From a virus (Duplodnaviria > Heunggongvirae > Uroviricota > Caudoviricetes), in the IMG/VR virus record IMGVR_UViG_2537561977_000021, positions 1 to 17,712 of that record: a stretch of DNA of 17,712 nucleotides. One strand, 5' to 3'. Under the pieces are notes generated by a model. It did not search any database, had not been told where the DNA came from, and saw nothing but the letters and a program-made list of their open reading frames with translations. How positions within the stretch are numbered: position 1 is the first letter of the stretch; every line of letters begins with the position of its first letter. This document shows, one piece after another, positions 1 through 16,484 of this stretch. The translations under genes were made by a program, and so were the position numbers.

Positions 1-366
1 TCATGCGCACCCCAGTTCTGTGATTTTTATCCCCAGCCGCCCACCAGGAACGAGCTGACCGCGCACAATATTGATTTCATCAAACTGCTCGTCGTCTATA
101 AGTAGTCCAGCATGCGTCAGCGCATCCAGCGGTGCCTTCAGGATATTGTCCAGGTCACGACGGCGCTTATCCGGTGGCTCTGCAATAATCTTTATCGCCA
201 GCCTTCCGGACAGGTTTAATTTCAGTCGCTGCTGGCGAACAATTAGCGCCACATCACGGCGATAACGCTCACCGGCTTTTGATACAAAATATGTGCTGCC
301 ACGACGTCGCCAGTAGGTGTTCACCGTTGGCGGGTAAGGCAAAACAAATTCTATGCGTTCGGTCAT
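1..366 (-). CDS. rusA: RusA-family Holliday junction resolvase (crossover junction endodeoxyribonuclease)
   Basis: Complete 121-aa ORF, ATG at 366-364, stop at 3-1. Size and sequence are RusA-like (recalled family). Stop of the upstream gene abuts its start (TAA-ATG). Confidence 0.75.
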   Translation of the reverse strand: MTERIEFVLPYPPTVNTYWRRRGSTYFVSKAGERYRRDVALIVRQQRLKLNLSGRLAIKIIAEPPDKRRRDLDNILKAPLDALTHAGLLIDDEQFDEINIVRGQLVPGGRLGIKITELGCA

Positions 367-1425
367 TTATGCTTTCCACTTCAGAACACCCGAATTTCTC
401 GCGTGCATTAAAAAACGAATCAGCAACAACAACTGACTACCGTGTTTTTCTTCAAAATCTTTTACCCCGGCGTGTAGTTCGTTATGGCATTTACGACACA
501 GCGGAATAACAAACAAATCGTCAGCCTTTGTTCCCATCCCTCCCAGTCCATGACCAATGATGTGGTGCGGATCATCTGCCTGATTGCCACACGTCATGCA
601 TTTCTGCGTTTTTACCCAGCGCGTGTATACAGGCATCTCTTCCCGTTGTGGTTTCTGGCGCTGGAGATACTGAGCCGGAGATTCCGGATCAACGGCAATG
701 CTGACCACCGTCTCTTCCTGTGGTGGATTCTGTTGCTGGTGGGCGTGAGGCAGCGGCGCAAGATTTTTTGTGCGCTGCTTCAGTATGCTGGTGGCGGTCT
801 GCTCTCCCGGCACGATGTCGCTTTCACGGTACATTGAGCGGATTTTTTCCGCACGCAACCCCAGCGAACGACGTAATACCGCTTCCGGTAGCGCGTCCGC
901 CACCTGATTGCGGACCGCCCACCAGGATAATTCAGCCAGAGATAATTCACGCTCCTGCGTACCGCTTATTGCGTGACCGATGACGTCAATCATCCATGCT
1001 GACAGGTTTTGATGAGCAAGTTGCTCGAGTGATTCGGATGTCTGGTCACGCAACTGGTTGTCGCAGTGCCAGCACAACACCATTGCGCCGGTACCATAAC
1101 GGTGAATGACGGTTTCGCTGTGATGATAATCGCCGTGTGGCCACTGGCAGGATTTAATATGGCGCAACAGCCAGTCAGACAATGCACCAGCACCACCAGC
1201 AGCACGAATCACCCGTGCGTTACTGAAAAACGGCAGCAATGTTTTGTCTTCCACTAGCGGCTGGCGAACGGCAGGAACGCCCCCGGACGGCAGATTACGC
1301 ATGCTTTTCGGTTCCGGCTCCACCAGTACCCGGGTATTGTGGAATACCGGCATGGATTCACGGCCTGGCTTAAGGACCACCAGCCCGAGTTCCGGAACCA
1401 GAACAGGTCGAAGTAATACCCGCAC
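367..1425 (-). CDS. ydfU: DUF968 (YdfU-like) prophage protein with C-terminal Cys/His-rich HNH-like motif
   Basis: 352-aa ORF. C-terminal motif CMTCG...HHIIGHGLGGMGTKADD...CRKCHNELH. Order hokD-rem-ydfU matches the Qin prophage. Start is GTG at 1425 four nt after GGAGGT; true start uncertain. Confidence 0.6.
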   Translation of the reverse strand: MRVLLRPVLVPELGLVVLKPGRESMPVFHNTRVLVEPEPKSMRNLPSGGVPAVRQPLVEDKTLLPFFSNARVIRAAGGAGALSDWLLRHIKSCQWPHGDYHHSETVIHRYGTGAMVLCWHCDNQLRDQTSESLEQLAHQNLSAWMIDVIGHAISGTQERELSLAELSWWAVRNQVADALPEAVLRRSLGLRAEKIRSMYRESDIVPGEQTATSILKQRTKNLAPLPHAHQQQNPPQEETVVSIAVDPESPAQYLQRQKPQREEMPVYTRWVKTQKCMTCGNQADDPHHIIGHGLGGMGTKADDLFVIPLCRKCHNELHAGVKDFEEKHGSQLLLLIRFLMHARNSGVLKWKA

Positions 1426-1426
1426 A

Positions 1427-1705
1427 TTACCTCCAGATCCGTTGCTGGAATGTGCAGGACGGACGCGGTGGCCGTTCGGAATAAGGGAGCCTGACGAAGA
1501 TTATCCAGTGACGATAATCGAGACTGAGGGCTTTCTTAATCTCGTATCCGTGTCTGCGGTAGCGCTGAATCAGCCATTCAGCCTGTTCTTCGGTGCAGGG
1601 GTCGTGCTGATACCAGTCAGATTTGAATGCATGAGAACGCCGCCCGTGCCTGCTGGCAGGGGCGGCAGAGTTATCCGAATTGTAAAATTTGGTATCGTGC
1701 GCCAT
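1427..1705 (-). CDS. small prophage protein, Rem-like by position between hokD and ydfU
   Basis: 92-aa ORF with ATG at 1705-1703, lying between the hok terminator and the DUF968 gene. Identity rests on synteny only; RBS is weak. Confidence 0.5.
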   Translation of the reverse strand: MAHDTKFYNSDNSAAPASRHGRRSHAFKSDWYQHDPCTEEQAEWLIQRYRRHGYEIKKALSLDYRHWIIFVRLPYSERPPRPSCTFQQRIWR

Positions 1706-1783
1706 CTGTTTTCTCTGCTGGCGCAGCAGGTGCCAGTTGTTCAGGCTGACGGATGGATTGTAAACCAGAACGACCAGAAAAAC

Positions 1784-1803
1784 AAAACCCGCCGAAGCGG
1801 GTT
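1784..1803 (-). terminator. Rho-independent terminator, probable 3' end of hokD mRNA
   Basis: On the minus strand AACCCGC-TTCG-GCGGGTT (7-bp stem) is followed by TTTTGTTTTT, about 70 nt downstream of the hokD stop. Confidence 0.6.
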
Positions 1804-1871
1804 AAGTGCGGGTGCGTTGAGGATGCCTGACACATCAGCGGTGGCGAGGGATTTCTCCCCCGCCGGGTCTC

Positions 1872-2027
1872 TTACTCCTCAGGTTCGTAAGCTGTGAAGA
1901 CAGCGACCTCCGTCTGGCCGGTTCGGATTCGTACCTCGCAGAGGTCTTTCCTCGTTACCAGTGCCGTCACTATGACGGTTAAACAGATGACGATAAGGGC
2001 GATTAACATCGCCTTTTGCTGCTTCAT
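1872..2027 (-). CDS. hokD: Hok-family type I toxin HokD (RelF), 51 aa
   Basis: MKQQKAMLIALIVICLTVIVTALVTRKDLCEVRIRTGQTEVAVFTAYEPEE matches HokD as recalled. An in-frame upstream ATG at 2084 gives a mok-like leader ORF. The leader resembles the plasmid R1 hok mRNA leader (GGUGCUUGAGGC..., AGCCUCUUAC...CAAGGAGAAG). Confidence 0.9.
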   Translation of the reverse strand: MKQQKAMLIALIVICLTVIVTALVTRKDLCEVRIRTGQTEVAVFTAYEPEE

Positions 2028-2076
2028 AGCCTGCTTCTCCTTGCCTTTCGGCACGTAAGAGGCTAACCTACATGTG

Positions 2077-2161
2077 TTCAGCATGGATTGAGCCTCAGAT
2101 TAATGTTAAGCGTCTTGCAGGACGCGTAATGTTAACTGGGGCTTTTCTCTATCTGCCTTTT
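2077..2161 (+). ncRNA. putative Sok-like antisense RNA of the hokD locus
   Basis: Plus-strand promoter-like TTGCCT (2041-2046), 17-bp spacer, TAACCT (2064-2069). The transcript would be antisense to the mok start (2082-2084) and end near the T-run at 2158-2161. Placement is by analogy with hok/sok of R1; ends are approximate. Confidence 0.3.
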
Positions 2162-2203
2162 GGTGTTCATGCCTGAGACAGATAGCCTCAAGCACCCGCA
2201 GTC

Positions 2204-2231
2204 ATTCTACTTAACTAAGATTTCCCTGCAA
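2204..2231 (-). promoter_or_regulatory. putative hokD promoter (-35 TTGCAG, 16-bp spacer, -10 TAGAAT)
   Basis: On the minus strand TTGCAG (2231-2226) and TAGAAT (2209-2204) lie about 7 nt upstream of the GGTGCTTGAGGC leader start near 2196. It is intact, 46 bp from the IS600 left end. Confidence 0.4.
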
Positions 2232-2340
2232 ACCGTTTTTGTCCGGCACAGTAAATATCCAACTAAACCAATAGCGTGAGGTAGCCTGAGTTTAACGGAC
2301 ACTCCTTCCTGAAATAGAATGGCATCAGAAGGAGCTAATA

Positions 2341-2643
2341 ATGAGCAGAAAAACCCAACGTTACTCTAAAGAGTTCAAAGCCGAAGCTGTCAGAACGGTT
2401 CTTGAAAATCAACTTTCGATCAGTGAAGGCGCTTCCCGATTATCCCTTCCTGAAGGCACTTTAGGACAATGGGTTACCGCCGCCAGAAAAGGGCTCGGTA
2501 CTCCTGGTTCCCGCACGGTGGCTGAACTGGAATCTGAAATTCTGCAACTGCGTAAGGCGTTAAATGAAGCTCGCCTTGAGCGAGATATATTAAAAAAAGC
2601 AACAGCGTATTTTGCACAGGAGTCGCTGAAAAATACGCGTTAA
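2341..2643 (+). CDS. IS3-family (IS600) transposase OrfA, HTH DNA-binding
   Basis: 100-aa ORF MSRKTQRYSKEFKAEAV... with a leucine-zipper-like C-terminus. Slippery site A AAA AAA G at 2592-2599 near its 3' end. Confidence 0.85.
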   Translation: MSRKTQRYSKEFKAEAVRTVLENQLSISEGASRLSLPEGTLGQWVTAARKGLGTPGSRTVAELESEILQLRKALNEARLERDILKKATAYFAQESLKNTR

Positions 2644-2678
2644 TCGAACAATGGCGACAACAATTTCCCATTGAAGCG

Positions 2679-3497
2679 ATGTGTCAGGTATTTGGTGTAT
2701 CCAGGAGCGGTTATTACAACTGGGTACAGCATGAACCCTCAGACAGAAAACAAAGTGATGAGCGGCTAAAACTGGAGATTAAGGTGGCACATATCCGCAC
2801 TCGCGAAACATATGGAACCCGGCGGCTCCAGACGGAGCTGGCAGAGAATGGCATCATCGTTGGTCGTGACCGACTGGCACGTCTTCGTAAGGAGCTAAGG
2901 CTACGCTGTAAGCAGAAACGCAAGTTCAGAGCGACTACGAACTCGAACCACAATCTGCCAGTTGCGCCAAATCTGCTGAACCAGACGTTCGCTCCTACAG
3001 CACCAAATCAGGTCTGGGTGGCGGACCTGACGTATGTTGCCACACAGGAGGGATGGTTGTACCTCGCTGGCATCAAAGATGTTTATACGTGCGAAATTGT
3101 CGGCTACGCCATGGGAGAGCGCATGACAAAAGAGCTGACAGGTAAAGCCCTGTTTATGGCGCTCAGGAGCCAGCGCCCACCTGCCGGGCTAATCCACCAC
3201 TCTGATCGAGGTTCACAGTACTGCGCATACGATTACCGGGTCATACAGGAGCAGTTTGGTCTGAAAACATCAATGTCGCGTAAAGGTAACTGTTACGACA
3301 ACGCTCCGATGGAAAGCTTCTGGGGAACGCTGAAAAATGAGAGCCTGAGCCACTATCGTTTTAATAACCGGGATGAAGCCATCTCAGTAATACGGGAATA
3401 CATTGAGATTTTCTACAATCGTCAGCGTCGTCACTCTCGTCTGGGGAATATCTCCCCGGCAGCCTTCAGGGAAAAATATCATCAGATGGCTGCTTAA
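2679..3497 (+). CDS. IS3-family (IS600) transposase OrfB, DDE catalytic domain; made as an OrfAB fusion by -1 frameshift
   Basis: 272 aa from the first ATG. The frame is open upstream to the slippery site (reads ...KYALIEQWRQQFPIEAMCQVFGVSRSGYY). DDE integrase-core motifs present (WVADLTY, HSDRGSQY, YDNAPMESFWGTLK). Confidence 0.85.
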   Translation: MCQVFGVSRSGYYNWVQHEPSDRKQSDERLKLEIKVAHIRTRETYGTRRLQTELAENGIIVGRDRLARLRKELRLRCKQKRKFRATTNSNHNLPVAPNLLNQTFAPTAPNQVWVADLTYVATQEGWLYLAGIKDVYTCEIVGYAMGERMTKELTGKALFMALRSQRPPAGLIHHSDRGSQYCAYDYRVIQEQFGLKTSMSRKGNCYDNAPMESFWGTLKNESLSHYRFNNRDEAISVIREYIEIFYNRQRRHSRLGNISPAAFREKYHQMAA

Positions 3498-3553
3498 AAA
3501 AAGAACAAATGGTAGTGTCCGCTATTGCCAGTACACCTCAGCGTTCGCTGTAT

Positions 3554-3733
3554 TTACCGCCAGTATTCAATGCACATGACCGCCATGAACACCCCTAAAA
3601 AAAGGGCATTTATATGTCCAAACATTAATATCAAAACATCAATTTTTTCCATATACCTTGCTGTGAAGATGATGGGCATACATGATGCGAACAACCAGAA
3701 CGCAACAAACAAAAACTGCAATGCGTTTTTCAT
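3554..3733 (-). CDS. small hydrophobic protein (59 aa, about two predicted TM helices), hypothetical
   Basis: ATG at 3733 is preceded by GTAGGGGGAATA (strong SD, about 4-nt spacing). Product MKNALQFLFVAFWLFASCMPIIFTARYMEKIDVLILMFGHINALFLGVFMAVMCIEYWR. AT-rich context; stop is 14 bp from the IS600 right end. Confidence 0.35.
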   Translation of the reverse strand: MKNALQFLFVAFWLFASCMPIIFTARYMEKIDVLILMFGHINALFLGVFMAVMCIEYWR

Positions 3734-3945
3734 TATTCCCCCTACAATCAATGTGCAATAACATTTAAACACACCTCAATTTGGCCGGACATATAAATAT
3801 CTAAACCAGAAAAAATCACTTACATAGCGTTACAAACTCTTTAGTCTAAATACTCATCGTAAAACATTCCCCATACTTATCAGTCCGTTCCGCGCCAGGT
3901 AGCTTATTGCCTTATCTGGCAACCTATAATCAGGTTTCCGCTTTT

Positions 3946-4368
3946 TCAGTTGGCTGGTCGTTTAACCGACATAGTTAACCCATTAATCTGGTTGCCGGAT
4001 GCTGGTGGATTTTCGCGTTTTAGTTGTTCATAAAAGTGCACAGCTTTAACCAGTTCTTCTGATGTAACCGGGACTGGTGGGGCAGTGAATAAGGCCTGAA
4101 TTTCATAGTTCGGCCTGTCGTTACAATCCTCTTTTTTCGGTACATATTTCCAGTCACCAACCCACAACTCCCCCTGAGAGTCCATAACACCTTTTTTCAC
4201 GTAGCGATATCGCCACGCTATCGGCTCTGCTTCCAGCGATGCCCGTGCAATTTTGAATAACTCGCCCTCTACTCGCGCCATCCCTGAATTGGGGTGGCAT
4301 TTCGTAATCGCTATTTTTAATTTGGCTTCTTCGATTAATTGTTCTTTTGTTAATTCAGTCATTTTCAT
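3946..4368 (-). CDS. hypothetical prophage protein (nin-region), 140 aa
   Basis: ORF with ATG at 4368 or 4362. Position and N-terminal charged helix suggest an Ead/Ea22-like protein, unconfirmed. A hairpin CCGCC-CTTTCA-GGCGG lies just upstream. Confidence 0.55.
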   Translation of the reverse strand: MKMTELTKEQLIEEAKLKIAITKCHPNSGMARVEGELFKIARASLEAEPIAWRYRYVKKGVMDSQGELWVGDWKYVPKKEDCNDRPNYEIQALFTAPPVPVTSEELVKAVHFYEQLKRENPPASGNQINGLTMSVKRPAN

Positions 4369-4458
4369 TACCGCCCTTTCAGGCGGCCTCCTGATGTTCT
4401 GAGGGTGCAGAAATCCCTCCGGTTAAGGATTAAATTTTATTTGCTGTGCTAAATTTAA

Positions 4459-4914
4459 TTATTCAGTTTTTATTCCTGCTCTCAAAACAGCCTCTGCCAT
4501 TCTGATATCCGGATTTTCTGAAATCATCTTTTCCGGCGAGTCGCAATCACCACCACATTCAGTTATGCGTTCATGACCAAAACGAATTGTGGTTTTGTGC
4601 GCATTAATCATTTGTGTAAGCGCATCTGTCAATTCTGCAATGCGTTTGTCTTTAACTTCCAGCTCTTTCAGTAAAGCCAGTACGTCAGGATCGCTAACAT
4701 CAACGACGGTTACGCGCGATTTCAGGTAATGCTCATCCGCAAAAGTTCGACCAGTTTTAAAATATCCATCATCCCCCTCACCTGTGCAGGCATACACAAT
4801 ATGCGTTCTGGAAAATATGCGCTGTATCGACATTTCATCGCCACAAACAGGACATTCCGGCACCTGAATTGGTGAATAACGTTCACGTAATGCCTGGTAA
4901 TTAGTCTTGCACAC
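4459..4914 (-). CDS. hypothetical prophage protein with CxxC zinc-ribbon-like motifs, 151 aa
   Basis: GTG start at 4914 preceded by AGGAG (7-nt spacing). CPVCG and ECGGDCD motifs plus a coiled-coil-like segment. Overlaps the upstream gene by 14 nt (operon). Confidence 0.55.
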   Translation of the reverse strand: MCKTNYQALRERYSPIQVPECPVCGDEMSIQRIFSRTHIVYACTGEGDDGYFKTGRTFADEHYLKSRVTVVDVSDPDVLALLKELEVKDKRIAELTDALTQMINAHKTTIRFGHERITECGGDCDSPEKMISENPDIRMAEAVLRAGIKTE

Positions 4915-5206
4915 TGGCTGTCTCCTGAAAAATCACCGCATGCCCCAGTTTCTCCGCCAGCGCCAGTTCTGCCTTAGCGCCTGCTGACCGCTGCCAGCCT
5001 TTCAGCATGTAAATCGCATCCACACAACGAATCATCGCCATGCAGATATCCATGTACTGCGGCTGTGTCAGCCCGTCCGGAAGTACTGCCGGGTTTAAGA
5101 CGGTATGCCCTTCCCGTTTCAGTTCCTCTTCCGCATTGTGAAACGCCTCACGGTTGAAATTTTTATACCCGGTCATTGGACCGGCGATATAGACTCTCAC
5201 CCTCAC
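4901..5206 (-). CDS. DUF4406 family protein (nucleoside 2-deoxyribosyltransferase-like fold)
   Basis: 101 aa starting MRVRVYIAGPMTGY...NREAFHNAEEELKREGHTVLNP, typical of DUF4406 as recalled. GTG start overlaps the upstream stop (GTGA) with AGGAGG 7 nt upstream. Confidence 0.7.
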   Translation of the reverse strand: MRVRVYIAGPMTGYKNFNREAFHNAEEELKREGHTVLNPAVLPDGLTQPQYMDICMAMIRCVDAIYMLKGWQRSAGAKAELALAEKLGHAVIFQETASVQD

Positions 5207-5664
5207 GCCATCACCTCCTGAAAATTACCCTGATAAAACGACAATATGCGCTGCATAACTTCGCTCTTCCGGCACTCGCGACAGATTATGTTTAGGCGAC
5301 TGTCGTAGCGACGTATTTCTCCGTCAGGTAATGACCAGATAAGGTCCGGATCAACCGCAGATGGTTTCTTCAGCTTTGCCCTTGAGAGCTTTTTACGGGC
5401 ATTTTGCCAGTCCTTACGCGCCTGTTCAGACGGGAATAACCCGTAACCAGAGTTGTATACATCGCCACTGGCAACCAGCTCTCTGGCCAGAACGCTCATC
5501 AGATATCTTGTTGCCCCAGTTTTAGCTTCCAGTTGTCGTAACGTCTCGCGCCCACTCTGGCGTACGAGTTCAAGAACCTGCCCTTTAATTTTTCCCGCTC
5601 TTCTTGTGTAAAAACTTTTGCCACAAGCCCTCCTGAAAATTACCTCATGACCAGAAATTAACAC
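5203..5664 (-). CDS. hypothetical prophage protein, possible winged-helix DNA-binding, 153 aa
   Basis: ORF translationally coupled to the replication gene (stop TAA 5667-5665, GTG 5664, AGGGGG SD). Function unknown. Confidence 0.5.
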   Translation of the reverse strand: MLISGHEVIFRRACGKSFYTRRAGKIKGQVLELVRQSGRETLRQLEAKTGATRYLMSVLARELVASGDVYNSGYGLFPSEQARKDWQNARKKLSRAKLKKPSAVDPDLIWSLPDGEIRRYDSRLNIICRECRKSEVMQRILSFYQGNFQEVMA

Positions 5665-6606
5665 TTACCCCCTGAAGCCCGGCGGAATTTCGTTATCCGG
5701 TTCAGAAATATGATTCACACAACGCTGGTTGTTCGTGCCGCTTACCGGGAGCAACCAGGGGTTCTCAAAATTCCGGTCCGGTCCAAAAAACGTCGTCGCT
5801 CGCTGAACAAATTCCGTTCCCGTTTTCCCGGTAGCCGCCAGGTATCTTGCGTAACGCCTCACGCCATCCAGCATGGCCTCTGGTGGCACCCCCTCGCGTA
5901 ATCTGGCCTTCCAGGCACTGAAAGCGGATTTCTTCGGGTTTGCCCCGGCACGCAACGGGTACTCCCGCCAGACCTGTTCGAACACATCCGGATAATCCAC
6001 TCGTCCCACAGACTGCCCGGTTTTTTCCGGGACTACCCGATCGGCTTCCCGCTGAATGGCGGAATCGGCTTCAGGCTGCTGCAGTTGGTGTGATTGCTCC
6101 GGCCTTGCGGTCATCACCTGCTGCACAGCGCCCGAATCGGCTTTCAGCGCATACGCTGAATCGGCTTCCGGTGTCGTGCCTGCTGGCTGACCAGGATTGA
6201 CGGTCTGAACATCCCCTGCCTGGTTCGTGGCGATTTTTTCGCCATGAACCATAGTGTTTTTGTCCTGTTCCTGTTCTTTCTCCTGTTCCTGTTCTTGGCT
6301 TCGAAGCCCCTTTAAAGCCCCTTCGAAGCCCCTTACCGTATTTCGGTTGTTATTTCGCCTTACATCCAGATGAAAATCCGTCTTATATCTGTCATAAAAC
6401 GCTGAAAGAAAAGCGTTTTCAGGTAATGACGCATATTCACTCCTGACACCTGCACAACGGTTATCGCCAGGCTTTAACTTTCCCCCAACCTGCCAGGCTG
6501 CCATTTCATGGACCCAGACCATCTCGGAATCATGGTCATAACTGCAAAAACCCACTTCGACAGCCCTTCGAAGCCCCTTCCGGACCAAGCCCGGTTTCAT
6601 GAGCAA
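5665..6606 (-). CDS. phage replication protein, C-terminal portion (phage conserved C-terminal domain, Phg_2220_C-like)
   Basis: 313-aa ORF. C-terminus DVFEQVWREYPLRAGANPKKSAFSAWKARL...YARYLAATGKTG...FFGPDRNFENPW matches the conserved replication-protein C-terminal domain as recalled. Contains an EQEQEKEQEQ linker and the iterons. Frame differs from the N-terminal piece. Confidence 0.6.
   Translation of the reverse strand: MLMKPGLVRKGLRRAVEVGFCSYDHDSEMVWVHEMAAWQVGGKLKPGDNRCAGVRSEYASLPENAFLSAFYDRYKTDFHLDVRRNNNRNTVRGFEGALKGLRSQEQEQEKEQEQDKNTMVHGEKIATNQAGDVQTVNPGQPAGTTPEADSAYALKADSGAVQQVMTARPEQSHQLQQPEADSAIQREADRVVPEKTGQSVGRVDYPDVFEQVWREYPLRAGANPKKSAFSAWKARLREGVPPEAMLDGVRRYARYLAATGKTGTEFVQRATTFFGPDRNFENPWLLPVSGTNNQRCVNHISEPDNEIPPGFRG
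6299..6333. repeat. three tandem 11-bp iteron-like repeats (TTCGAAGCCCC / TTTAAAGCCCC / TTCGAAGCCCC) inside the replication gene
   Basis: Direct tandem repeats read directly from the sequence. A second cluster (TTCGACAGCCC, TTCGAAGCCCC) lies at 6556-6577. Confidence 0.7.
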
Positions 6607-6763
6607 GGTACAAAACCGGCAGGTAATACAGGCCCAGCATGTTTGCGTGAGGGGATGTCATCAGGTAAAAAGCAACCACCTGCGCTTCTGCGCCTGCCTT
6701 TCTGAGTTCTTTCCCCGTTTCTCCCAGCCAGAATCGCGGGGAAACTTTTGCGTAATCACGCAT
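6536..6763 (-). CDS. phage replication protein, N-terminal fragment (separated from downstream part by frameshift)
   Basis: ATG at 6763 preceded by GAGGTGG (about 4-nt spacing). N-terminus MRDYAKVSPRFWLGETGKELRKAG...VVAFYLMTSP is typical of replisome-organizer N-terminal domains. Ends at a TGA inside the second iteron cluster; the +1 frame continues as the 313-aa ORF. Confidence 0.5.
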   Translation of the reverse strand: MRDYAKVSPRFWLGETGKELRKAGAEAQVVAFYLMTSPHANMLGLYYLPVLYLAHETGLGPEGASKGCRSGFLQL

Positions 6764-6984
6764 GTCCACCTCATCTGGTGCCGAACCTTCCTCCGGATAT
6801 AATCTGTGATTCCCCAATCAACAGAACCAGAGGAGGTTCGACATGTCTTTTTTGAAAAGCCTTTATCGGGCTCATATATTAAAAGTTGCAGCAACAAATC
6901 ACTGGCAAGAAGGAACAGATGAAATGTTGCCGGATTACCGGGCATGGCTGCGCGCCGAAACATACCTTCGTCTCGATATGCTGA

Positions 6985-7494
6985 TTAACGATCTTCAAAA
7001 AGAGGCTCCATCCACTCAAACCCTTCAGGGTGTCGGCGCTGTTCGCGTTCTGGTATCTCGCCATAACGCTCTCTCAGTAACTGAAGTGCGTCAGCTTTCT
7101 TTTGCTGAACTGATTTTCTTGCTTCAGCCAGCTCTGGAATCAGTGAATATCCCATCGGAGGTGTTCCGGTATCCGCCCCACGTGAACCAACAGCTACAAG
7201 CTGCACAAGACAACAGGCATGCTGGATTGACTCCCTGCTCAGAGGCTGAATGGGATCATTCTCTGCTGAAGAGATACCAAGATTTGTATAATCCTCAATA
7301 AGCCGGGCGCACGCTTCAGCATCAGCCAGTTTTTTTCTGGTTTCCTTGCGCTGTTCTCTGACGGACAAACGCCAGAGCAGCGCATTGGCTTTATGCATCA
7401 GCCACTCTGCCAGTTCCACATCAGATAAACCGCCACGCCAGATGTGTGGACTGTTTTCGTAAACGCTCAGTGTCAGTTTTTTGTCATTGGTCAT
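6985..7494 (-). CDS. hypothetical early-operon protein, 169 aa
   Basis: ATG at 7494 lies 13 nt after the YdaT-like stop, in the same direction as the cro operon. First-codon-position G enrichment favours this strand. An antisense plus-strand ORF (6843-7301) with a strong RBS overlaps it, so the call is uncertain. Confidence 0.4.
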   Translation of the reverse strand: MTNDKKLTLSVYENSPHIWRGGLSDVELAEWLMHKANALLWRLSVREQRKETRKKLADAEACARLIEDYTNLGISSAENDPIQPLSRESIQHACCLVQLVAVGSRGADTGTPPMGYSLIPELAEARKSVQQKKADALQLLRERYGEIPEREQRRHPEGFEWMEPLFEDR

Positions 7495-7507
7495 ATTTAT
7501 TGCCCCG

Positions 7508-7933
7508 TCAATGCACAGCCAGAGTATTTCCTGCCGGACCACCACGATTCATCTGATCGAACAGAACAATCGCTGATGCAACGAAATCATCGATATCTTT
7601 CACCAGCTGTTCCTGCGTCTCCAGCAGTTCCCGAAAATAAACTGAACTGTGGCTGCGCATTCGGGCCACCAGCGGAGGCGGCATTGCCTTTTCGATCGCT
7701 GGTAACAACGCCTGAATTTTTTTAACAGCATCAGGGGTGTCTTTCTCTATCCAGCGGAAAATTTTCTGGGTATTGCGAGCCAGGGCTTCCGGATGGCTGT
7801 CGTCGTACAGTTCAGGGAACGTCATCCCCAGTTCGAAATAAGTCCGGGCTATCTCAGCCGCCGGAACTTTCTCACCATCAGGATATGCCCATGCATTCAT
7901 CGCCATACGGATGTGCTCATGCTTGATTTTCAT
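7508..7933 (-). CDS. YdaT-like (CII-like) prophage regulatory protein
   Basis: 141 aa starting MKIKHEHIRMAMNAW.... ATGA overlap with the upstream Cro-like gene. Family assignment from recalled YdaT features. Confidence 0.65.
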   Translation of the reverse strand: MKIKHEHIRMAMNAWAYPDGEKVPAAEIARTYFELGMTFPELYDDSHPEALARNTQKIFRWIEKDTPDAVKKIQALLPAIEKAMPPPLVARMRSHSSVYFRELLETQEQLVKDIDDFVASAIVLFDQMNRGGPAGNTLAVH

Positions 7934-8193
7934 GAATCACCCCCCGCCGATGGTTGTGTGTTAGCCTGAAACTCAGCAGGCAAGCCGTCAGTTGGGTTGG
8001 GGTAGGTTTTACTGTCAATCTCATGTGGGGTCACCACCCATCCCGTTGCTTCACACCAACGTAATATTTTTTCTCCTGTAAGTTTTGCACGCCCCGTTAT
8101 AACGTGGCTGACCATCCCCTGGGATGCGCCAACAATCTCAGCAAATGAACTCTGGGTTATATGAAAATGATGCAAATATTCTCCAAGATTCAT
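7930..8193 (-). CDS. YdaS/Cro-like HTH transcriptional regulator (lytic-side repressor)
   Basis: ATG at 8193 preceded by AGGGCGG; product MNLGEYLHHFHITQSSFAEIVGASQGMVSHVITGRAKLTGEKILRW... has an HTH. Divergent from the repressor gene across an operator-bearing intergenic region. The ORF-track start at 8220 is TTG. Confidence 0.75.
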   Translation of the reverse strand: MNLGEYLHHFHITQSSFAEIVGASQGMVSHVITGRAKLTGEKILRWCEATGWVVTPHEIDSKTYPNPTDGLPAEFQANTQPSAGGDS

Positions 8194-8229
8194 AATCCGC
8201 CCTATGTGATGTGTTACCAACGCATAATT

Positions 8230-8270
8230 AATAGCACTGTTATTTTTAAAAGTAAATAGCGATGCTATTT
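8230..8270. promoter_or_regulatory. OR-like operator region: two palindromic sites AATAGC-N3-GYTATT between divergent cro-like and repressor genes
   Basis: Site A AATAGCACTGTTATT (8230-8244); site B AAATAGCGATGCTATTT (8254-8270, perfect 7-bp half-sites). Candidate promoter elements overlap on both strands. Confidence 0.6.
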
Positions 8271-8304
8271 CAAAGTGATTAGCAATCTTATTAGAATTGG
8301 ATGT

Positions 8305-8805
8305 ATGAAAAGAAAATCACTGTCAGACACCGACCTCAACGCCGCCAGAAGACTGAAAGAAATCTGGATGGCAAAGAAATCTCAGTTGGGATTGACTCAG
8401 GAACGTGCGGCGGAAATTATGGGGTTTTCAACACAAGGGGCGGTAAGTCACTACCTAAATGGTCAAACCCCACTAAACCTTGAGGCTGTTCTAAAGTTTG
8501 CTGGCTTACTGAAAGTTCCCCCTGAGTCAATCAGGCCAGACATGGCAGATTTGCTGCAAATTGCAAGGATGTATTGTCGAGAACCACAGCAAGATAACAT
8601 AGTCGCATTACCAGCAGACACAGAACAAACAGAGGATGAACTACCGTTTGCCGTAGAGCCGATGGAACGAGATTTAATCCATACGTTCAGAGCTTTTCCG
8701 AAAGAAGATCAAGAACACATGCTTCAGGAGATGAAAGATAAAAAAGAATCAATGGATCGTACGGTTGCGCGGTGGTTAGCTGCACAAAAAGGCCGTCGCG
8801 CCTAA
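8305..8805 (+). CDS. CI-like prophage repressor / PaaR-like HTH (XRE family) regulator
   Basis: HTH LGLTQERAAEIMGFSTQGAVSHYLNG. Divergent from the cro-like gene and followed by the paaA-parE-like pair. ATG at 8305 (MKRKSL...) lies just downstream of TAGAAT at 8292-8297, so the mRNA may be leaderless; the alternative ATG at 8275 is not excluded. Confidence 0.7.
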   Translation: MKRKSLSDTDLNAARRLKEIWMAKKSQLGLTQERAAEIMGFSTQGAVSHYLNGQTPLNLEAVLKFAGLLKVPPESIRPDMADLLQIARMYCREPQQDNIVALPADTEQTEDELPFAVEPMERDLIHTFRAFPKEDQEHMLQEMKDKKESMDRTVARWLAAQKGRRA

Positions 8806-8824
8806 ATCAGAGGAGATATGTAAA

Positions 8825-9019
8825 ATGAGTACAGTCCTTTCCCCAATGGTTTCAGAATTTGAGACAGTTGAGCAAGAAAATAGTTACAACGAATGGCTGC
8901 GGGCCAAAGTAGCAGCAAGCCTCGCGGATCCCCGCCCGGCGATTCCGCATGATGAGGTAATGGCGGAAATGGAACAAATTATTGCCCAAATTGCTGCTGC
9001 AACTCACAGAGGTGAATAA
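8825..9019 (+). CDS. type II antitoxin, PaaA-like (ParE-associated antitoxin)
   Basis: 64 aa with GAGGAG 8 nt upstream. Sequence ...SPMVSEFETVEQENSYNEWLRAKVAASLADPRPAIPHDEV... resembles PaaA2-type antitoxins as recalled. Stop overlaps the toxin start (TAATG). Confidence 0.75.
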   Translation: MSTVLSPMVSEFETVEQENSYNEWLRAKVAASLADPRPAIPHDEVMAEMEQIIAQIAAATHRGE

Positions 9020-9309
9020 TGTTACCCGTTTTATGGCTACCATCTGCTCGTGATGATTTGCGCCAGATCGTAGCCTACATAGCTAAAGAAAATCCCGCGG
9101 CAGCACGCAGAATGAAAATTCGAATTGAAACATCCGTTTTGCCGCTCACAGAGCATCCTTACCTGTATCCTCCAAGCGAGCGAGTTCTTGGTCTTCGTGA
9201 AATTGTAACTCATCCTAACTACATCATCCTTTACCGAGTAACAGCATCAAGCATAGAAGTAGTAAATATTGTGCATTCTCGAAGACAGTATCCAGGCAAA
9301 AACAGTTAA
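9019..9309 (+). CDS. parE: ParE/RelE-family type II toxin
   Basis: 96 aa with hallmark RelE/ParE motifs (WLPSARDDLRQIVAYIAKENPAAARRM..., YIILYRV..IEVVNIVHSRR). Translationally coupled to the antitoxin. Confidence 0.85.
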   Translation: MLPVLWLPSARDDLRQIVAYIAKENPAAARRMKIRIETSVLPLTEHPYLYPPSERVLGLREIVTHPNYIILYRVTASSIEVVNIVHSRRQYPGKNS

Positions 9310-9325
9310 TTATTCCCGCCGACAG

Positions 9326-9348
9326 AACCACCTTAGGGTGGTTTTTTC
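9326..9348 (+). terminator. Rho-independent terminator ending the repressor-antitoxin-toxin operon
   Basis: AACCACC-TTAG-GGTGGTT followed by TTTTTTC. Confidence 0.7.
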
Positions 9349-9363
9349 TTGCTCCAACAAAAA

Positions 9364-9403
9364 CAATAGCGATGCTATTTACACCAAAAATAATGATGCT
9401 ATT
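9364..9403. promoter_or_regulatory. OL-like operator region: two further copies of the AATAGC-N3-GCTATT operator motif
   Basis: Site C CAATAGCGATGCTATTT (near-identical to site B) and site D AATAATGATGCTATT. They lie about 1.1 kb from the OR-like pair and upstream of the rightward early genes. Confidence 0.6.
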
Positions 9404-9582
9404 GTTTCAGGCGTCAACCCACCCCGCCCCACAGAATGCAGGGCAATACTTCGAGTTACCAGACAGTGGTCAGGGGTTAAGTAGCCAGCCCGAGGCGTAA
9501 GAACATGACGGCAGGGTTCAACTTTAACTATGCAGCAGGTTTTTGTTCCGCTCCCCCGGCGTTAAGGGGAAATGAGGTCAGC

Positions 9583-9735
9583 ATGGATACTATCAATCTT
9601 GGCAACAGCGAATCTCTGGTATGTGGCGTGTTTCCCAACCAGGACGGTACGTTCACCGCGATGACGTATACCAAAAGCAAAACGTTTAAAACCGAAGCTG
9701 GCGCGCGTCGCTGGTTATCCAGAAATACTGACTGA
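9583..9735 (+). CDS. small early protein (51 aa), YdfA-like by size and position
   Basis: ATG at 9583 with GAGG 5 nt upstream; product MDTINLGNSESLVCGVFPNQDGTFTAMTYTKSKTFKTEAGARRWLSRNTD. The ORF also extends to an upstream ATG at 9505 (alternative start). Confidence 0.45.
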   Translation: MDTINLGNSESLVCGVFPNQDGTFTAMTYTKSKTFKTEAGARRWLSRNTD

Positions 9736-9746
9736 TGAGGTTAACG

Positions 9747-10121
9747 ATGGAATTTAAAGATTTACCAACACCTTTCCAGGAAATGGCAGCGAATATAGTT
9801 CGTTCTCAATTGGCGACTCTTGACCTGAGTACCGTAGAAAAAGAAACCATAGATAATATATCCGGTAACGTGCGCCGTGCCTTTATCGGGTTGTACGAAG
9901 AGAAGCAGCACTCTGATAAGCATGATTCCTCTGAAAAATACTTCCTGGAATTAATGGATATCATTAACAAGGGGTTTGGTTTGTTGATGGAAAAGAAAGG
10001 GATTCGAATAGAACCCCTTAAAAACCATTTTACTGAGTGCAACATTAATTCCTGTGATTTAAAGCATCCCACTCCAGATGGGAAAGTTGAAGCCAACTAT
10101 AAAATATCAATTAATCATTAA
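9747..10121 (+). CDS. hypothetical protein, AT-rich moron gene (124 aa)
   Basis: ATG at 9747 with GAGG 6 nt upstream (alternative ATG at 9735). Low-GC coding sequence with no recognised motif. Confidence 0.55.
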   Translation: MEFKDLPTPFQEMAANIVRSQLATLDLSTVEKETIDNISGNVRRAFIGLYEEKQHSDKHDSSEKYFLELMDIINKGFGLLMEKKGIRIEPLKNHFTECNINSCDLKHPTPDGKVEANYKISINH

Positions 10122-10125
10122 GTTC

Positions 10126-10150
10126 TCCACGGGTGAGGTGGAGAACATGC
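10126..10150. terminator. stem-loop between convergent genes (GTTCTCCAC-GGGTGAG-GTGGAGAAC), possible bidirectional terminator
   Basis: Perfect 9-bp stem with a second weaker hairpin at about 10153-10184. No clean T-tract, so terminator function is tentative. Confidence 0.35.
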
Positions 10151-10199
10151 GCCGGACACGGATAAATCTCCGGCATGCTCTTTAACATTCTGGATATTC

Positions 10200-10646
10200 C
10201 TAACCACAAAGAAATCGCATCAATTTAGATTTTGTGGGCAGCTTCTCTTGTTGTTCGATGGAAACGCCTATTTTGATCTGTGTTTTTAAGATCGCAATAT
10301 CTTTAAGTGATGACCAAATATGATTATCCGTTTTTTCCAGAATTTTTAACTGCATTTTCAATTCAGAATCAGAATATTTTTCTGCATCATCAAAAAGCTG
10401 CAAATATTCTGCGGATTTTCTCATGGCGTTACCTGACTTTTGTCCGAATCCATAAATCGTTTGGACGGTTGCGATCACAACAATAAAAACGCCAGAAATT
10501 TCCGGAATGAATCCGCCAATGACAGATGAACCGAGGATAATACTCACTACTGAGAGAAGTTTATCGAGACGACCAGTCGCTACCGAAAATAGTTGCTCAA
10601 GAAAATAGCCATATAAAATTCTGTCAAGAATATCATCCCGGTCCAT
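10200..10646 (-). CDS. two-TM membrane protein, candidate superinfection-exclusion (SieB-like position) or abortive-infection effector
   Basis: 148 aa with ATG at 10646 and AGGTGA 6 nt upstream. Hydrophobic segments LSVVSIILGSSVIGGF and VFIVVIATVQTIYGF precede a charged C-terminal domain. Low GC; opposite orientation to the surrounding early-left genes. Confidence 0.6.
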   Translation of the reverse strand: MDRDDILDRILYGYFLEQLFSVATGRLDKLLSVVSIILGSSVIGGFIPEISGVFIVVIATVQTIYGFGQKSGNAMRKSAEYLQLFDDAEKYSDSELKMQLKILEKTDNHIWSSLKDIAILKTQIKIGVSIEQQEKLPTKSKLMRFLCG

Positions 10647-10652
10647 ACATCA

Positions 10653-10799
10653 TCACCTACTTGTTTGGTTGTTGCTGTTCCCCCTCTCCTCCGAAGGAGC
10701 TGGAGATGGTTTTGGTCGAATGTTTTTCTCTGGTATGTGATCCCAGACTGTTTTATGTGTCGAATTGCCACCACCTGCTTGTGCTCTTTGCTCTGTCAT
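10653..10799 (-). CDS. small hydrophilic protein (48 aa), hypothetical, coupled to the downstream membrane protein gene
   Basis: ATG at 10799 with AAGGA 6 nt upstream. Its stop TGA lies within the SD of the membrane-protein gene. Weak call. Confidence 0.3.
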   Translation of the reverse strand: MTEQRAQAGGGNSTHKTVWDHIPEKNIRPKPSPAPSEERGNSNNQTSR

Positions 10800-11025
10800 A
10801 TGATTTCCTTGGATCGTTGGGGATATCCAGATTATACAGATTTCTTGTCGTTGGGGAATGACAGGAACCACCTCGCCTGACGTGGTTAAAAGCAGGCACA
10901 CAACACGAAAGCGCACGGCGAAGTCATTTCTCCCTCTGTTGCGTGTCGCCGGTATCTTCGACCGTGCGCTTCCGGTTGTGGCACTCCGCGAAATGGCGCG
11001 GCGGTAAGTATGGCGGGGTTATCCT

Positions 11026-12319
11026 CTGAGGGATCCCCAGAAAATTTAGTAAACCATTATCATATTGGTATACCGTTGCTGTAGAACTTTCAGCCCTGCG
11101 TCAAGTGACAGTGTGTTTAGTATGAGTGGAGAATGTCGAATCACATTCTCCGCCAGTTTTAATAACGAGATGACTCGCCTGTGCTTCACTGTATTTGCCT
11201 GATATTTATGATGTATCCCTTTGTTTTCCAGGCTGAAACCGCTTAACCACATAATGATACTGGCTAATGTTGCGATCAGACTCAATACCGTGACCCGCCC
11301 GGATGAATGACTGGCACCAAACCGTAGTCCAAATCCCCAGCGAGGATTTTTTTCATCCCTGAAATTTTGCTCAATTTGCATTCTACGGCTGTATAATTTC
11401 ATTACCTGTTTTGGCGAGAACTCAGTACTGTTTGTGAAAATAAACCATGGTGATTTCCCGGCAGTACGAGCTTTAGCCGTCACCGATGGTCTGGTTGCTC
11501 TTTCCTTCGAGCGTTTAAATCTACGACCTTTAGGCTTACTTTTATAAAGATAAAAATGCCCTTCATGTTGTGCATTTTTATCTCGACCCAGCAGGCCTTC
11601 ACCTAAATAAATTGCTGTCGTTGATGCTTTTGTGCCTGAGTCCGACACCTTTTCCCAGCCATTACCAACATTGTAATAATGATTGCCCAGTACCCGGCAA
11701 ATATAGGTCCAGCCACGGGAGCGGAGCTGTTGGAACCATCGCCCCTGAAAACCGGCATCTGTAATAACAATGACATCAGTCCCGGGGGAAAAGCACTCAG
11801 CAAGCGATTCCAGAAAACGCTCATGTACATCTGCATTCGCTGTCTGTGATGATGGAACGACACAACTCATCAACGGTAAAGAACGCCCGTCACATGCCAG
11901 GCTTGCCCGCAAAAGCTGAAAACGAGAGGCATGATAAGCACTCTAGTCAATGAGTATCACAACACGAGACATTCCCCGCGTAATCTTTTGGGTAATTCGC
12001 TGAAAAATGGTGGAAACCTCATTTTGCAAATGTCGATTCCCCAACAGTCGATCCACCCGCTTTATTTTGTTTTTAACTGATGCCGTACCGGTTAAATGAC
12101 GCCCGATACTGGTAAGTGTGAGGGAAGCGCCATTTATTACAGCATTAGTTGCGTCAATCAGTGATTTTTGACGGTAAAGATGCAAAGGGGCCAGTATGTT
12201 GTTAAGGAAATTTTGGCATAATGAACGTGCAGGCATAGTGGTGATCTCCTTGAAATTGTTAGCACAATCAATTAGATCACATCTCACTATGCCTGTCTTG
12301 TTTTCTGGGGATTCCTCAG
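11026..12319 (-). mobile_element. IS10-like insertion sequence (IS4 family), about 1294 bp, transposase inactivated
   Basis: Terminal inverted repeats CTGAGGGATCCCCAGAAAA (left) and TTTTCTGGGGATTCCTCAG (right). Flanking direct repeat GGGTTATCCT (11016-11025 and 12320-12329), consistent with a 9-bp target duplication; boundaries uncertain by 1 bp. Confidence 0.8.
11046..12236 (-). pseudogene. IS10-like transposase interrupted by an in-frame amber (TAG) codon
   Basis: The ORFs 11943-12347 and 11046-11912 are in the same frame, separated by TAG at 11945-11943. N-terminal motif KNKIKRVDRLLGNRHL and the C-terminal part align with IS10 transposase as recalled; the TAG sits where IS10 has Trp (TGG). 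Likely start is ATG at 12236 (MPARSL...). Confidence 0.75.
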
Positions 12320-12407
12320 GGGTTATCCTTACCCCCACAGGTAGCACCGGGTTGTCAGGTTGACCATACGCCCGAGTGACAACCCCGCCACAACATCTCC
12401 ATGTTGA

Positions 12408-12466
12408 GGCTTGTGTGAGACCTTTGGCGGCATCAGTTTAATTGCTGGCTGATGTCCGCCCTTTTT
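12408..12466 (+). ncRNA. dicF: DicF-like small RNA with intrinsic terminator
   Basis: ...TTGTGTGAGACCTTTGGCGGCATCAGTTTAATTGCTGGCTGATGTCCGCCCTTTTT resembles E. coli DicF (recalled as UUUCUGGUGACGUUUGGCGGUAUCAGUUUUACUCCGUGACUGCUCUGCCGCCC). Hairpin GGCGGCATCAG/CTGATGTCCGCC plus T5. dicB and ydfD follow downstream as in Qin. 5' end approximate; 5' region diverges. Confidence 0.55.
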
Positions 12467-12467
12467 A

Positions 12468-12637
12468 AAGTGAATTTTGTGATGCGGTGAATGCGGCTAA
12501 GCGCACGCGGAACAGTTAAAAAAGTGATAGGCACTCCGTATTTGTTTTATGGAGTTGGTTTCCCTGTATTCCGGCGTTAATTGTTAACTGGTTAACGTCA
12601 CCTGGAGGCACCAGGCACCGCATCACAAAATTCACTT
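12468..12637. repeat. pair of 22-bp inverted repeats (AAGTGAATTTTGTGATGCGGTG) flanking about 126 bp
   Basis: Plus 12468-12489 matches the reverse complement of 12616-12637 (21-22 of 22 positions). Internal palindromes CCTGG-AGGCA-CCAGG and CATCACA...TGTGATG. Lies immediately downstream of the DicF-like terminator. Confidence 0.6.
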
Positions 12638-12766
12638 CTGTGATGAAAGGTGAGAGAAAATGTTGAATGTAGCTATTGAAAACCAGAACGGGTGGAATTA
12701 TAGTGCACCTGCACCTCATAAAACGGGTGCCGGGATTGGCCTCCTGTTAATCACATTGGTGCCTGA

Positions 12767-12791
12767 ACACGCACCAAAAGCGTGTTTTTTG
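12767..12791 (+). terminator. Rho-independent terminator (ACACGC-ACCAAAA-GCGTGT + T6)
   Basis: Hairpin plus TTTTTT read directly. It lies inside the long ORF-track frame 12660-13508, arguing that Rha starts downstream. Confidence 0.55.
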
Positions 12792-12950
12792 TTGCCTGCA
12801 TTTCATCATTCAATGGCAGCTCAGGCGGGAGCTTCTCACGAAGCGCCGGGTTCCGATGTGACCGGTAAGGCCAATCCCGTCTGGGCTACCACCAATCGGA
12901 TTGGCCTCTGCGGTGGTGGCAGTACTGCTTTCACATCGGAGGATGCCGTT

Positions 12951-13508
12951 ATGGCTACTATCACTACCCTTTCTCACCCTTGTGTAACCATCGAAAATGG
13001 TCGCGCTGTCACCACATCTGTCGCCATTGCGGAATTCTTCCGCAAAATGCATAAAGACGTTCTGAAAAAAATAGACAACCTAGAATGCTCTGAGAAATTT
13101 AGCGGGCGCAATTTTGCGCCCGCCGAATATCTTGATGAGCAAGGCAAAAAACGCCCAATGTACCAGATCACCAAAAACGGCTTCGTTTTCCTGGTGATGG
13201 GATTCACTGGCAAAAAAGCCGCTGCATTTAAAGAAGCCTACATTGCTGAGTTCGATCGCATGGAGGCCGAACTGCGCCAGAATAACACCCCACCCACTGA
13301 CAAAATAATTCCAGGCGATGGCCGCACCCTGGTTGTTCACTTCGACGAACGCGGCAACATCAGATTCACCGAAACCGTTCCTGATGGCGCACGGGTCTGT
13401 ACCATGGAGACTTTCCGGTTTTATCTGGAAGAACAGGGATGGACTCTTGTTAACCGAGGCGCAATTAAAAATATGACTGTAGAGCAATTACTCAAAATTC
13501 ATTGTTGA
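12951..13508 (+). CDS. Rha-family phage regulatory protein (Phage_pRha domain)
   Basis: ATG at 12951 with GGAGGA 7 nt upstream. Motifs VTTSVAIAEFFRKMHKDVLKKIDNL...YQITKNGFVFLVMGFTGKKAAAFKEAYIAEFDRMEAEL match the Rha family as recalled. The ORF-track start at 12660 is rejected in favour of this one. Confidence 0.7.
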   Translation: MATITTLSHPCVTIENGRAVTTSVAIAEFFRKMHKDVLKKIDNLECSEKFSGRNFAPAEYLDEQGKKRPMYQITKNGFVFLVMGFTGKKAAAFKEAYIAEFDRMEAELRQNNTPPTDKIIPGDGRTLVVHFDERGNIRFTETVPDGARVCTMETFRFYLEEQGWTLVNRGAIKNMTVEQLLKIHC

Positions 13509-13518
13509 GGACGCGATA

Positions 13519-13707
13519 ATGGAAACGTTATTACCAAACGTTAATACGTCTGAAGGTTGTTTTGAAATTGGTGTCACTATCAGTAACACGGTATTTACTG
13601 AAGATGCCATTAACAAGAGAAAACACGAACGGGAGTCATTAAATAAAATATGCATTGTTTCAATGCTGGCTCGTTTGCGTCTGATGCAAAAAGGATGCTG
13701 GCGATGA
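13519..13707 (+). CDS. dicB: cell-division inhibitor DicB (62 aa)
   Basis: METLLPNVNTSEGCFEIGVTISNTVFTEDAINKRKHERESLNKICIVSMLARLRLMQKGCWR is near-identical to E. coli DicB as recalled. GAGGA 8 nt upstream. Lies downstream of the DicF-like RNA as in Qin. Confidence 0.8.
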   Translation: METLLPNVNTSEGCFEIGVTISNTVFTEDAINKRKHERESLNKICIVSMLARLRLMQKGCWR

Positions 13708-13892
13708 ATACAGCATTTGCACTTATTCTGACGGTTTTTCTTGTTTCCGGAGAGCCAGTTGATATTGCAGTCAGTGTTCACAGAACAATGCAGGAATGTA
13801 TGGCCGCAGCAACCGAACAGAAAATTCCAGGCAACTGTTATCCGGTCGATAAAGTTATTCACCAGGATAACGAAATCCCGGCAGGATTTTAA
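13704..13892 (+). CDS. ydfD: YdfD-like small protein with N-terminal hydrophobic segment (Qin prophage lysis-associated protein)
   Basis: MNTAFALILTVFLVSGEPVDIAVSVHRTMQECMAAATEQKIPGNCYPVDKVIHQDNEIPAGF matches YdfD as recalled. AAGGA 9 nt upstream. Overlaps the dicB stop (ATGA). Confidence 0.7.
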   Translation: MNTAFALILTVFLVSGEPVDIAVSVHRTMQECMAAATEQKIPGNCYPVDKVIHQDNEIPAGF

Positions 13893-14125
13893 AACAGCAC
13901 CGTAATAAATATCCAGTTTCATTCTTATATGTCAGCAATGGCAGAGATTTGTTCACCCTTAAATCTGTGATGAGGTTTATCAATAATGAGCACTGATAAA
14001 GAAGAATTTGCACTATATTGCGAAGCAAAAAATGACAAAGTAAGAAAACGCCTGGGAATTAAAGGTGTTTTTACTGGACTACAGCAAAAAAATTATCTGT
14101 TGCAATCTCCCGCTGCATTACCGCA

Positions 14126-16426: not shown

Positions 16427-16441
16427 TGTTCAACCCTAATT

Positions 16442-16467
16442 GCCGCTAACCGTATATAGTTAGCGGC
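16442..16467. promoter_or_regulatory. perfect 9-bp-stem inverted repeat (GCCGCTAAC-N8-GTTAGCGGC) upstream of xis-int
   Basis: Read directly; no adjacent T-tract on either strand, so more likely a protein-binding or regulatory site than a terminator. Confidence 0.4.
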
Positions 16468-16484
16468 GGTTATGAGATATAGCT

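Follow-up and report, generated by a model that had tools for sequence, protein, structure and literature searches.

The 17,712-nucleotide (nt) stretch analyzed here (positions 1 to 17,712 of IMG/VR virus record IMGVR_UViG_2537561977_000021; hereafter the window) is a decayed lambdoid prophage of Escherichia coli LT-68, and its replication-initiator gene is an ordinary pseudogene that arose by one 11-base-pair (bp) deletion. The missing segment is a single unit of a tandem array of 11-bp repeats (array A) within the coding sequence; this array and a second one (array B), which lies ~250 bp away in the same gene and is built on the same core, AAGGGGCTTC, are best read as the initiator-binding iterons of an in-gene origin of replication. 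The comparative evidence argues strongly for this reading, from which we infer both that the initiator binds these repeats and that replication fires there. For the full account—an initiator gene with an in-gene iteron origin, broken by the loss of an 11-bp unit—we estimate a probability of about 0.8.

A Single 11-bp Deletion Splits the Initiator Gene

The pseudogene lies at 5665..6763 on the minus strand. Its closest complete counterpart, in E. coli FDAARGOS_944 (98.7% identity over 5600–6900), is 11 nt longer and intact, with the 1110-nt, 369-amino-acid (aa) form of the gene annotated as a single "DNA-binding protein" that matches phrog_1701 over residues 1–369 (E = 4.9e-143). When the window is aligned with intact homologues (93–99% identity), the sole length difference is one 11-nt unit absent from array A. 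Specifically, intact genes read GAAGGGGCTTC GAAGGGGCTTC GAAGGGCTGTC GAAGTGG, and just one of the two perfect GAAGGGGCTTC units is left in the window; the deletion falls within 6570–6580, its exact placement inside the repeat being ambiguous. Re-insertion of one unit gives a 1110-nt open reading frame (ORF) that departs from FDAARGOS_944 at 6 nt and 3 aa, and this near-identity of the repaired ORF to an intact gene indicates that the lesion is single and recent.

As a preliminary description of this DNA had recognized, the gene is split across two reading frames. Both ORFs are on the minus strand: an N-terminal ORF (6536–6817, including an upstream extension) and a 3′ ORF (5665–6606). The 5′ remnant itself (6536..6763, minus strand; ATG 6763–6761, TGA 6538–6536) encodes a 75-aa stub made of 67 native residues followed by eight out-of-frame ones (CRSGFLQL). 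The 3′ remainder (5665..6569, minus strand), delimited by the alignment and the repaired ORF, is open in the other frame to the stop at 5665–5667 and holds the rest of the N-terminal domain (N-domain), a QE linker, an EADS-repeat linker, and the C-terminal domain. The preliminary description had the N-terminal frame ending inside the second repeat cluster; the alignment with intact homologues locates the frame change at the missing array A unit, within 6548–6580 and thus inside the cluster, whereas the stop codon follows 10 nt after the array. Its proposal that one added 11-bp unit would restore a single ORF holds, but the length it gave (380–390 aa) does not, as the repaired protein measures 369 aa when begun at the ATG of its RefSeq homologues (387 aa from an upstream TTG). 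Homologues do not encode two proteins with the same boundaries; they encode one, as seen also in SE11, CFSAN029787, O26:H11 11368, and the phages PhiR5_2 and 75/02 Stx.

Phased Repeats Within the Gene

The unit GGGGCTTCGAA occurs exactly at 6322–6332, 6300–6310, and 6567–6577, with variants at 6311–6321 (GGGGCTTTAAA) and 6556–6566 (GGGCTGTCGAA); all five lie on the minus strand, and the number of copies and the coordinates of the two clusters agree with those first reported. Three exact 11-mers within 280 nt are far from chance, as only 0.008 copies are expected in 17.7 kb on both strands. A scan of the window allowing two mismatches returned six units against 4.95 expected, no better than chance, and so only exact or near-exact units are informative. 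In phase with one another, array A (6548..6580, minus strand) comprises three 11-nt units, GAAGGGGCTTC (6580–6570), GAAGGGCTGTC (6569–6559), and GAAGTGGGTTT (6558–6548); in this GAAG register, intact genes and the family consensus have four. Array B (6300..6335, minus strand) also comprises three phased units, GGGGCTTCGAA, GGGGCTTTAAA, and GGGGCTTCGAA, in direct orientation, and is unaltered in the window.

Between the arrays, G+C content dips to 35% (6360..6439, no strand), as compared with 50–60% around it, and a 40-nt G+C minimum occurs at the same gene position (nt 349–375) in many loci of the family; the dip is a candidate unwinding region. Directly after array B comes a purine-rich (GARCAR)n tract (6255..6299, minus strand) that is conserved family-wide and encodes a QEQEQEKEQEQD linker. 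A scan of the window for DnaA boxes gave two matches, both outside the initiator gene and at chance level. The phage's own origin would be laid out as two arrays of 11-bp units spaced one helical turn apart, with an A+T-rich stretch between them and a purine-rich tract after the second.

DNA-Level Conservation Across the Initiator Family

We compared 80 homologous loci from species-representative genomes that extend from Proteus to Burkholderiales, with gene G+C contents of about 38–68%. The array A peptide E-G-A-S-K-G-L is almost invariably coded GAA GGG GCT TCN AAG GGG CTT, i.e., with GGG, AAG, and CTT codons, as against the GGC and CTG favored elsewhere in the same genes. Normalized codon entropy in conserved-residue columns is 0.21 in array A vs. 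0.83 elsewhere (Mann–Whitney p = 3.9e-6), and a further invariant GAA stands exactly 33 nt past the first. The exact 8-mer AAGGGGCT is found 224 times in gene nt 100–600 (39.8 kb in total) vs. 34 times in 381 kb of flanking sequence, a 63-fold enrichment, and adjacent exact copies are 11 nt apart in 77 of 79 pairs. Loci of the family carry four phased units in array A and two to three in array B.

Array B lies at gene nt 430–465, always followed by GAAGCCAAGARCARGA…, and is inverted in most beta- and gammaproteobacterial loci, where it is read E-A-P-S-K-P-L; in Enterobacteriaceae it is direct and read EGASKGL or, in the window, GFEGALKGL, and in a few loci the orientation is mixed. Array B retains its DNA unit across lineages that differ in strand, frame, and peptide there. 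In outlier loci, moreover, the unit varies jointly in both arrays (one locus pairs GGGAC with GTCCC, and others pair GGGCC with GGCCC).

The repeats also change with the N-domain. The C-terminal module and the start of the downstream DUF977 gene (5600..6260, minus strand) are shared at 96–99% identity with initiators that have an unrelated N-domain (MANAWLRLWHDMPNDPKW…), e.g., in IMG/VR locus L038 and also in L039–L086, and the mosaic joint in the window lies at ~6260, just past array B and the QE tract. Initiators with this other N-domain carry, at corresponding positions, two in-gene GTCACG arrays of four and five units, phased at 10 nt and 260 nt apart (in L038, 2664–2702 and 2924–2972, with a TDKDTDKD linker after the second). 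The iteron and lambdoid-origin label, a guess in the preliminary description, now has strong comparative support because synonymous sites are constrained, units are phased at 11 nt, array orientation flips, and a different N-domain comes with different repeats. The pattern as a whole—helical phasing, DNA conservation beyond coding need, and repeats that travel with the N-domain—is the one expected of an iteron-type origin.

Two further observations concern array placement in Acinetobacter. Only in loci from this genus (L129, L135, L142, L150, L161, L162, and L175) do extra AAGGGGCT units occur upstream of the start codon (−24 to −37), where they may serve in autoregulation or form a third array. 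In Acinetobacter phage YMC/09/02/B1251 (L204:1501–2394), homology to the N-domain begins in frame at 1501, but the deposited coding sequence starts at 1768; its start has probably been placed 89 codons too far downstream, which cuts off array A.

Predicted Domains of the Initiator

No Pfam family was found at E ≤ 0.1 for the N-domain, either in the window ORFs or in the 20 homologues scanned, and a PDB sequence search gave no solved structure matching the N-domain. An AlphaFold model built from 61 homologues (pLDDT above 90 for residues 10–140) has elements in the order H25–36, E45–47, H50–57, H60–73, E77–80, E85–88, which is the winged-helix order. By its place in this topology, H60–73 is the predicted recognition helix, and array A (codons 62–75) would overlap it. 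In this model, the N-terminal winged-helix domain would be the likely binder of the 11-bp units, and the C-terminal module would probably recruit host helicase machinery.

The C-terminal half of the intact protein matches several "replication initiation" PHROGs. Its last 25 residues (…NNQRCVNHISEPDNEIPPGFRG; codons at 5668..5742, minus strand) match the extreme C-terminal tail of E. coli DnaT (…SEPDNxIPPGFRG; E = 3.5e-4 to PDB 6aep, also 2ru8 and 9zbt), which accounts for the label "primosomal protein I" in some records; the tail alone matches, the DnaT NCBIfam score being 18.8 vs. a cut-off of 201. This likeness hints at recruitment of the host helicase-loading machinery, and the tail may mimic a contact of the host primosome. 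A different repeat, GAAGCCGATTC, occurs in the C-terminal module's linker at 6062–6072, 6134–6144, and 6158–6168 (minus strand; 0.32 copies expected). Its copies differ at two positions from the inverted iteron GAAGCCCCTTC, are spaced at multiples of three, and encode (P)EADS peptide repeats; repetition in the peptide is a likelier explanation for them than a DNA site.

In the early operon, the initiator gene follows a cro-like helix-turn-helix (HTH) gene and a YdaT-like gene. A DnaC-like ATPase gene stands next to it in 75/02 Stx, PhiR5_2, O26:H11 11368, and CFSAN029787, while in the window, FDAARGOS_944, and SE11 the initiator is followed by a DUF977 (Ren-like) gene with no DnaC-like ATPase between. 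This contrast is the one between window 5203–5664 and L005:1247–1993 and L006:1246–1992. As only some relatives carry the DnaC-like gene, the initiator occurs both with and without its own helicase loader.

Weighing the Origin Reading

The repeats might be cis-elements without being an origin, for example autoregulatory operators of the initiator gene, the two halves of a long-range A–B mRNA stem with control over translation, or binding sites of some other protein. In most lineages the two arrays are mutually inverted and could pair over ~22 nt, and the Acinetobacter units at −26 and −37 before the start codon would suit an operator. Yet in Enterobacteriaceae, the window included, the arrays are direct and cannot pair but are equally conserved, which rules out a long-range mRNA stem as a general explanation. 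The layout also parallels that of known in-gene origins: phased arrays sit where the N-domain meets the linker, an A+T-rich stretch is present, and a different N-domain comes with different repeats. We regard a purely non-origin function as unlikely.

Alternatively, the repeats could be a by-product of conserved peptides (EGASKGL and EAPSKPL) and no DNA sites at all, with the deletion a random pseudogenizing indel. The protein alignment lends this some weight, since G63, A64, and L68 never vary and S65, K66, and G67 hardly do, and the segment is a predicted helix of the winged-helix domain. Peptide conservation, however, does not explain why synonymous positions are frozen across genes of such different G+C content, nor why successive units are read in different frames (11 not being a multiple of 3). 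Nor does it explain why array B holds its DNA unit constant as its peptide varies with frame and strand, or why ±11 alleles recur at one spot. We consider this explanation quite improbable.

Several points nevertheless count against the origin reading itself. The peptide EGASKGL is itself highly conserved, so some of the constraint on array A acts through the protein. The A+T-rich dip could merely reflect the amino acids of a conserved NPFLxxFxDRY segment. Structural matches of the N-domain are at fold level only (Foldseek E-values ~0.1), with no Pfam or PDB sequence match beside them, and we found no paper describing binding or origin activity for any member of the initiator family. A literature search for the repeat sequence itself returned only primers and unrelated matches, and no paper giving the repeat as an iteron. 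Finally, the prophage, which lacks a DnaC-like gene and contains insertion sequences, may have been replication-dead before the deletion occurred.

Recurrence of the Frameshift and Its Likely Mechanism

Array A is a recurrent, low-frequency (~1%) frameshift hot spot. Four off-frame array A alleles occur in the 469 complete E. coli genomes that carry the N-terminal region (~1%), and gains of 11 nt are found in strains 2013C-4974, War, and OkiPb01713 and in IMG/VR contig L033. IMG/VR alleles of array A number 36 standard and one +11 (1/37 off-frame), with no −11 allele among these 37; metagenome contigs gave 12 standard alleles and the −11 allele in 0/12, the +11 allele not having been searched for there. 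In about 37 loci, array B was of constant length.

Iteron slippage had been put forward as the cause of inactivation, and the independent ±11 alleles support it. That −11 and +11 alleles arose independently at the same array points to slippage, rather than another deletion mechanism, as the origin of the window allele. The two identical adjacent units of array A would have misaligned during replication or repair and one would have been lost, whether by slipped-strand mispairing or by unequal recombination. As 11 is not a multiple of 3, the loss puts every codon past residue 67 out of frame, a break that falls within the predicted recognition helix, and leaves the 75-aa stub; the prophage can thus make no functional initiator, with array A cut from four to three phased units and array B intact.

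Loss and gain alleles at the same array, with a downstream frame that is otherwise undamaged, might also suggest a reversible phase-variation switch, or a split gene that still functions, either through ribosomal frameshifting or as two separate proteins. Against this, slippage should be rare at an array with only two perfect units, and off-frame alleles are indeed scarce (~1% of the 469 genomes, 1/37 in IMG/VR, −11 in 0/12 metagenome alleles). Phase-variable contingency loci are marked by a long tract and frequent on/off alleles, whereas array A has two perfect units and rare off-frame ones. An intact single ORF is the norm, no homologue is split at the same boundaries, and the break falls inside the predicted recognition helix; on these grounds we reject programmed frameshifting or two functional proteins, and hold the set of explanations as a whole to be highly improbable.

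An artefact of sequencing or assembly, with the gene intact in the organism, is least credible of all: assemblers can collapse tandem repeats, but a 22-nt repeat is far shorter than any read, and the exact 75-aa product and the same junction are present in two NCBI assemblies from different projects (E. coli LT-68 GCA_000188815.2, which matches the window at 100% identity across 6228 bp, and GCA_900448215.1, at 99.9%), which makes an artefact very unlikely. The gene thus has the marks of a frameshift pseudogene, i.e., a single indel relative to intact orthologues that is reproduced in independent assemblies.

Likeness to Known Replication Systems

In phage lambda, the origin (ori-lambda) consists of four 19-bp iterons and an A+T-rich region inside the O gene. 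The initiator family described here resembles lambda O in placing its probable origin in the initiator gene at the N-domain/linker boundary, with an A+T-rich segment adjacent that is a candidate for unwinding, in its modular build with an exchangeable and probably helicase-recruiting C-terminal part, and in its early-right operon position. It differs in that there is no sequence relationship and no match to Pfam Phage_rep_O, the units are 11 bp at one-turn spacing (vs. 19 bp), and two arrays lie ~250 bp apart, one of them within the predicted recognition-helix codons, with a relative orientation that varies by lineage. In the RepA_N plasmid initiators, e.g., pSK41 RepA (PDB 4pt7, 4pta), a winged-helix N-domain binds iterons inside the rep coding region; here the likeness does not go beyond the fold (10% identity), a phage and not a plasmid is the replicon, and the unit and its arrangement differ. 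Variants of the lambda O/ori-lambda type are also described in Shiga-toxin (Stx) phages (PMC7466680).

Among named relatives, the Eru4 replication region of Stx phages comes closest. In Shigella phage 75/02 Stx, the first protein of this region is described as "of unknown function," with no mention of an origin or repeats (PMC8951638), and the Eru papers describe no origin for the Eru4 type. This first gene is a 77%-identical homologue of the window gene, is followed by the DnaC-like ATPase gene, and has array A plus an inverted array B; in the window version, array B is direct, the DnaC-like gene is absent, and the gene is frameshifted. Like contingency loci, array A changes by entire units whose length is not a multiple of 3, so that a gain or loss switches the frame, but it differs from them in having two perfect copies and ~1% off-frame alleles, with nothing to indicate regulated or reversible switching. 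To E. coli DnaT (primosomal protein I), the initiator is similar in its C-terminal tail only, the rest being unrelated.

Prophage Context and Decay

The window shows other signs of decay. An element of the IS3 family lies at 2341–3497, its two ORFs being 100 and 272 aa long, and a transposase of the IS4 family at 11046–12347 is split into ORFs of 134 and 288 aa. As the prophage is decayed in these respects and has no DnaC-like gene, selection to keep the initiator was probably already weak. In FDAARGOS_944 (L003:982–1670), the initiator is intact and the antiterminator Q gene is annotated as frameshifted; with Q frameshifted in one and the initiator in the other, the sister prophages decayed at different genes.

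The wider surroundings (8275–9309 and 1–1705) are a Qin/Rac-like context with a DicA-like HTH gene, relBE, a YdaT-like gene, and DUF968, and the counterpart region of FDAARGOS_944 carries hokD, ydfABC, and dicB. Upstream of the initiator, two ORFs (6843–7301, plus strand, and 6985–7545, minus strand) overlap antisense by 317 nt, and both match families: ECs1072 (NCBIfam, E = 7.6e-29) and phrog_8304 (E = 1.7e-91). Between the ECs1072 gene and the antisense 186-aa ORF, gene callers differ in two assemblies, and a codon-position test on 16 distinct homologues favored neither.

Implications

For the window itself, the split gene is explained by one repeat-mediated deletion, which is useful for annotation and otherwise unremarkable. 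A more far-reaching idea is that the origin is self-referential, i.e., that the recognition-helix codons are the initiator's own binding sites, such that a ±11 slip would alter iteron number and toggle the frame in one step. We consider this a long shot. If true, it would lock protein and site together, explaining their near-freezing from Proteus to Burkholderia; it would provide a heritable, potentially reversible on/off switch for prophage replication competence; and the surviving arrays could fire in trans via a related co-resident prophage.

The broader significance lies with the family. Comparative sequence data assign a probable origin and a probable origin-binding domain to a widespread phage initiator family that has no Pfam model, and a probable in-gene origin would be common to this large family; we found no earlier description of it. 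The family includes the Eru4 type of Stx phages, where the first gene had been set down as "unknown function," and a precise, testable site can now be proposed, namely AAGGGGCTTC units in two arrays. An origin of this kind within a coding sequence would create a built-in frameshift hot spot, one that has been hit repeatedly in E. coli, and slippage at the array would be one route by which prophages lose replication competence.

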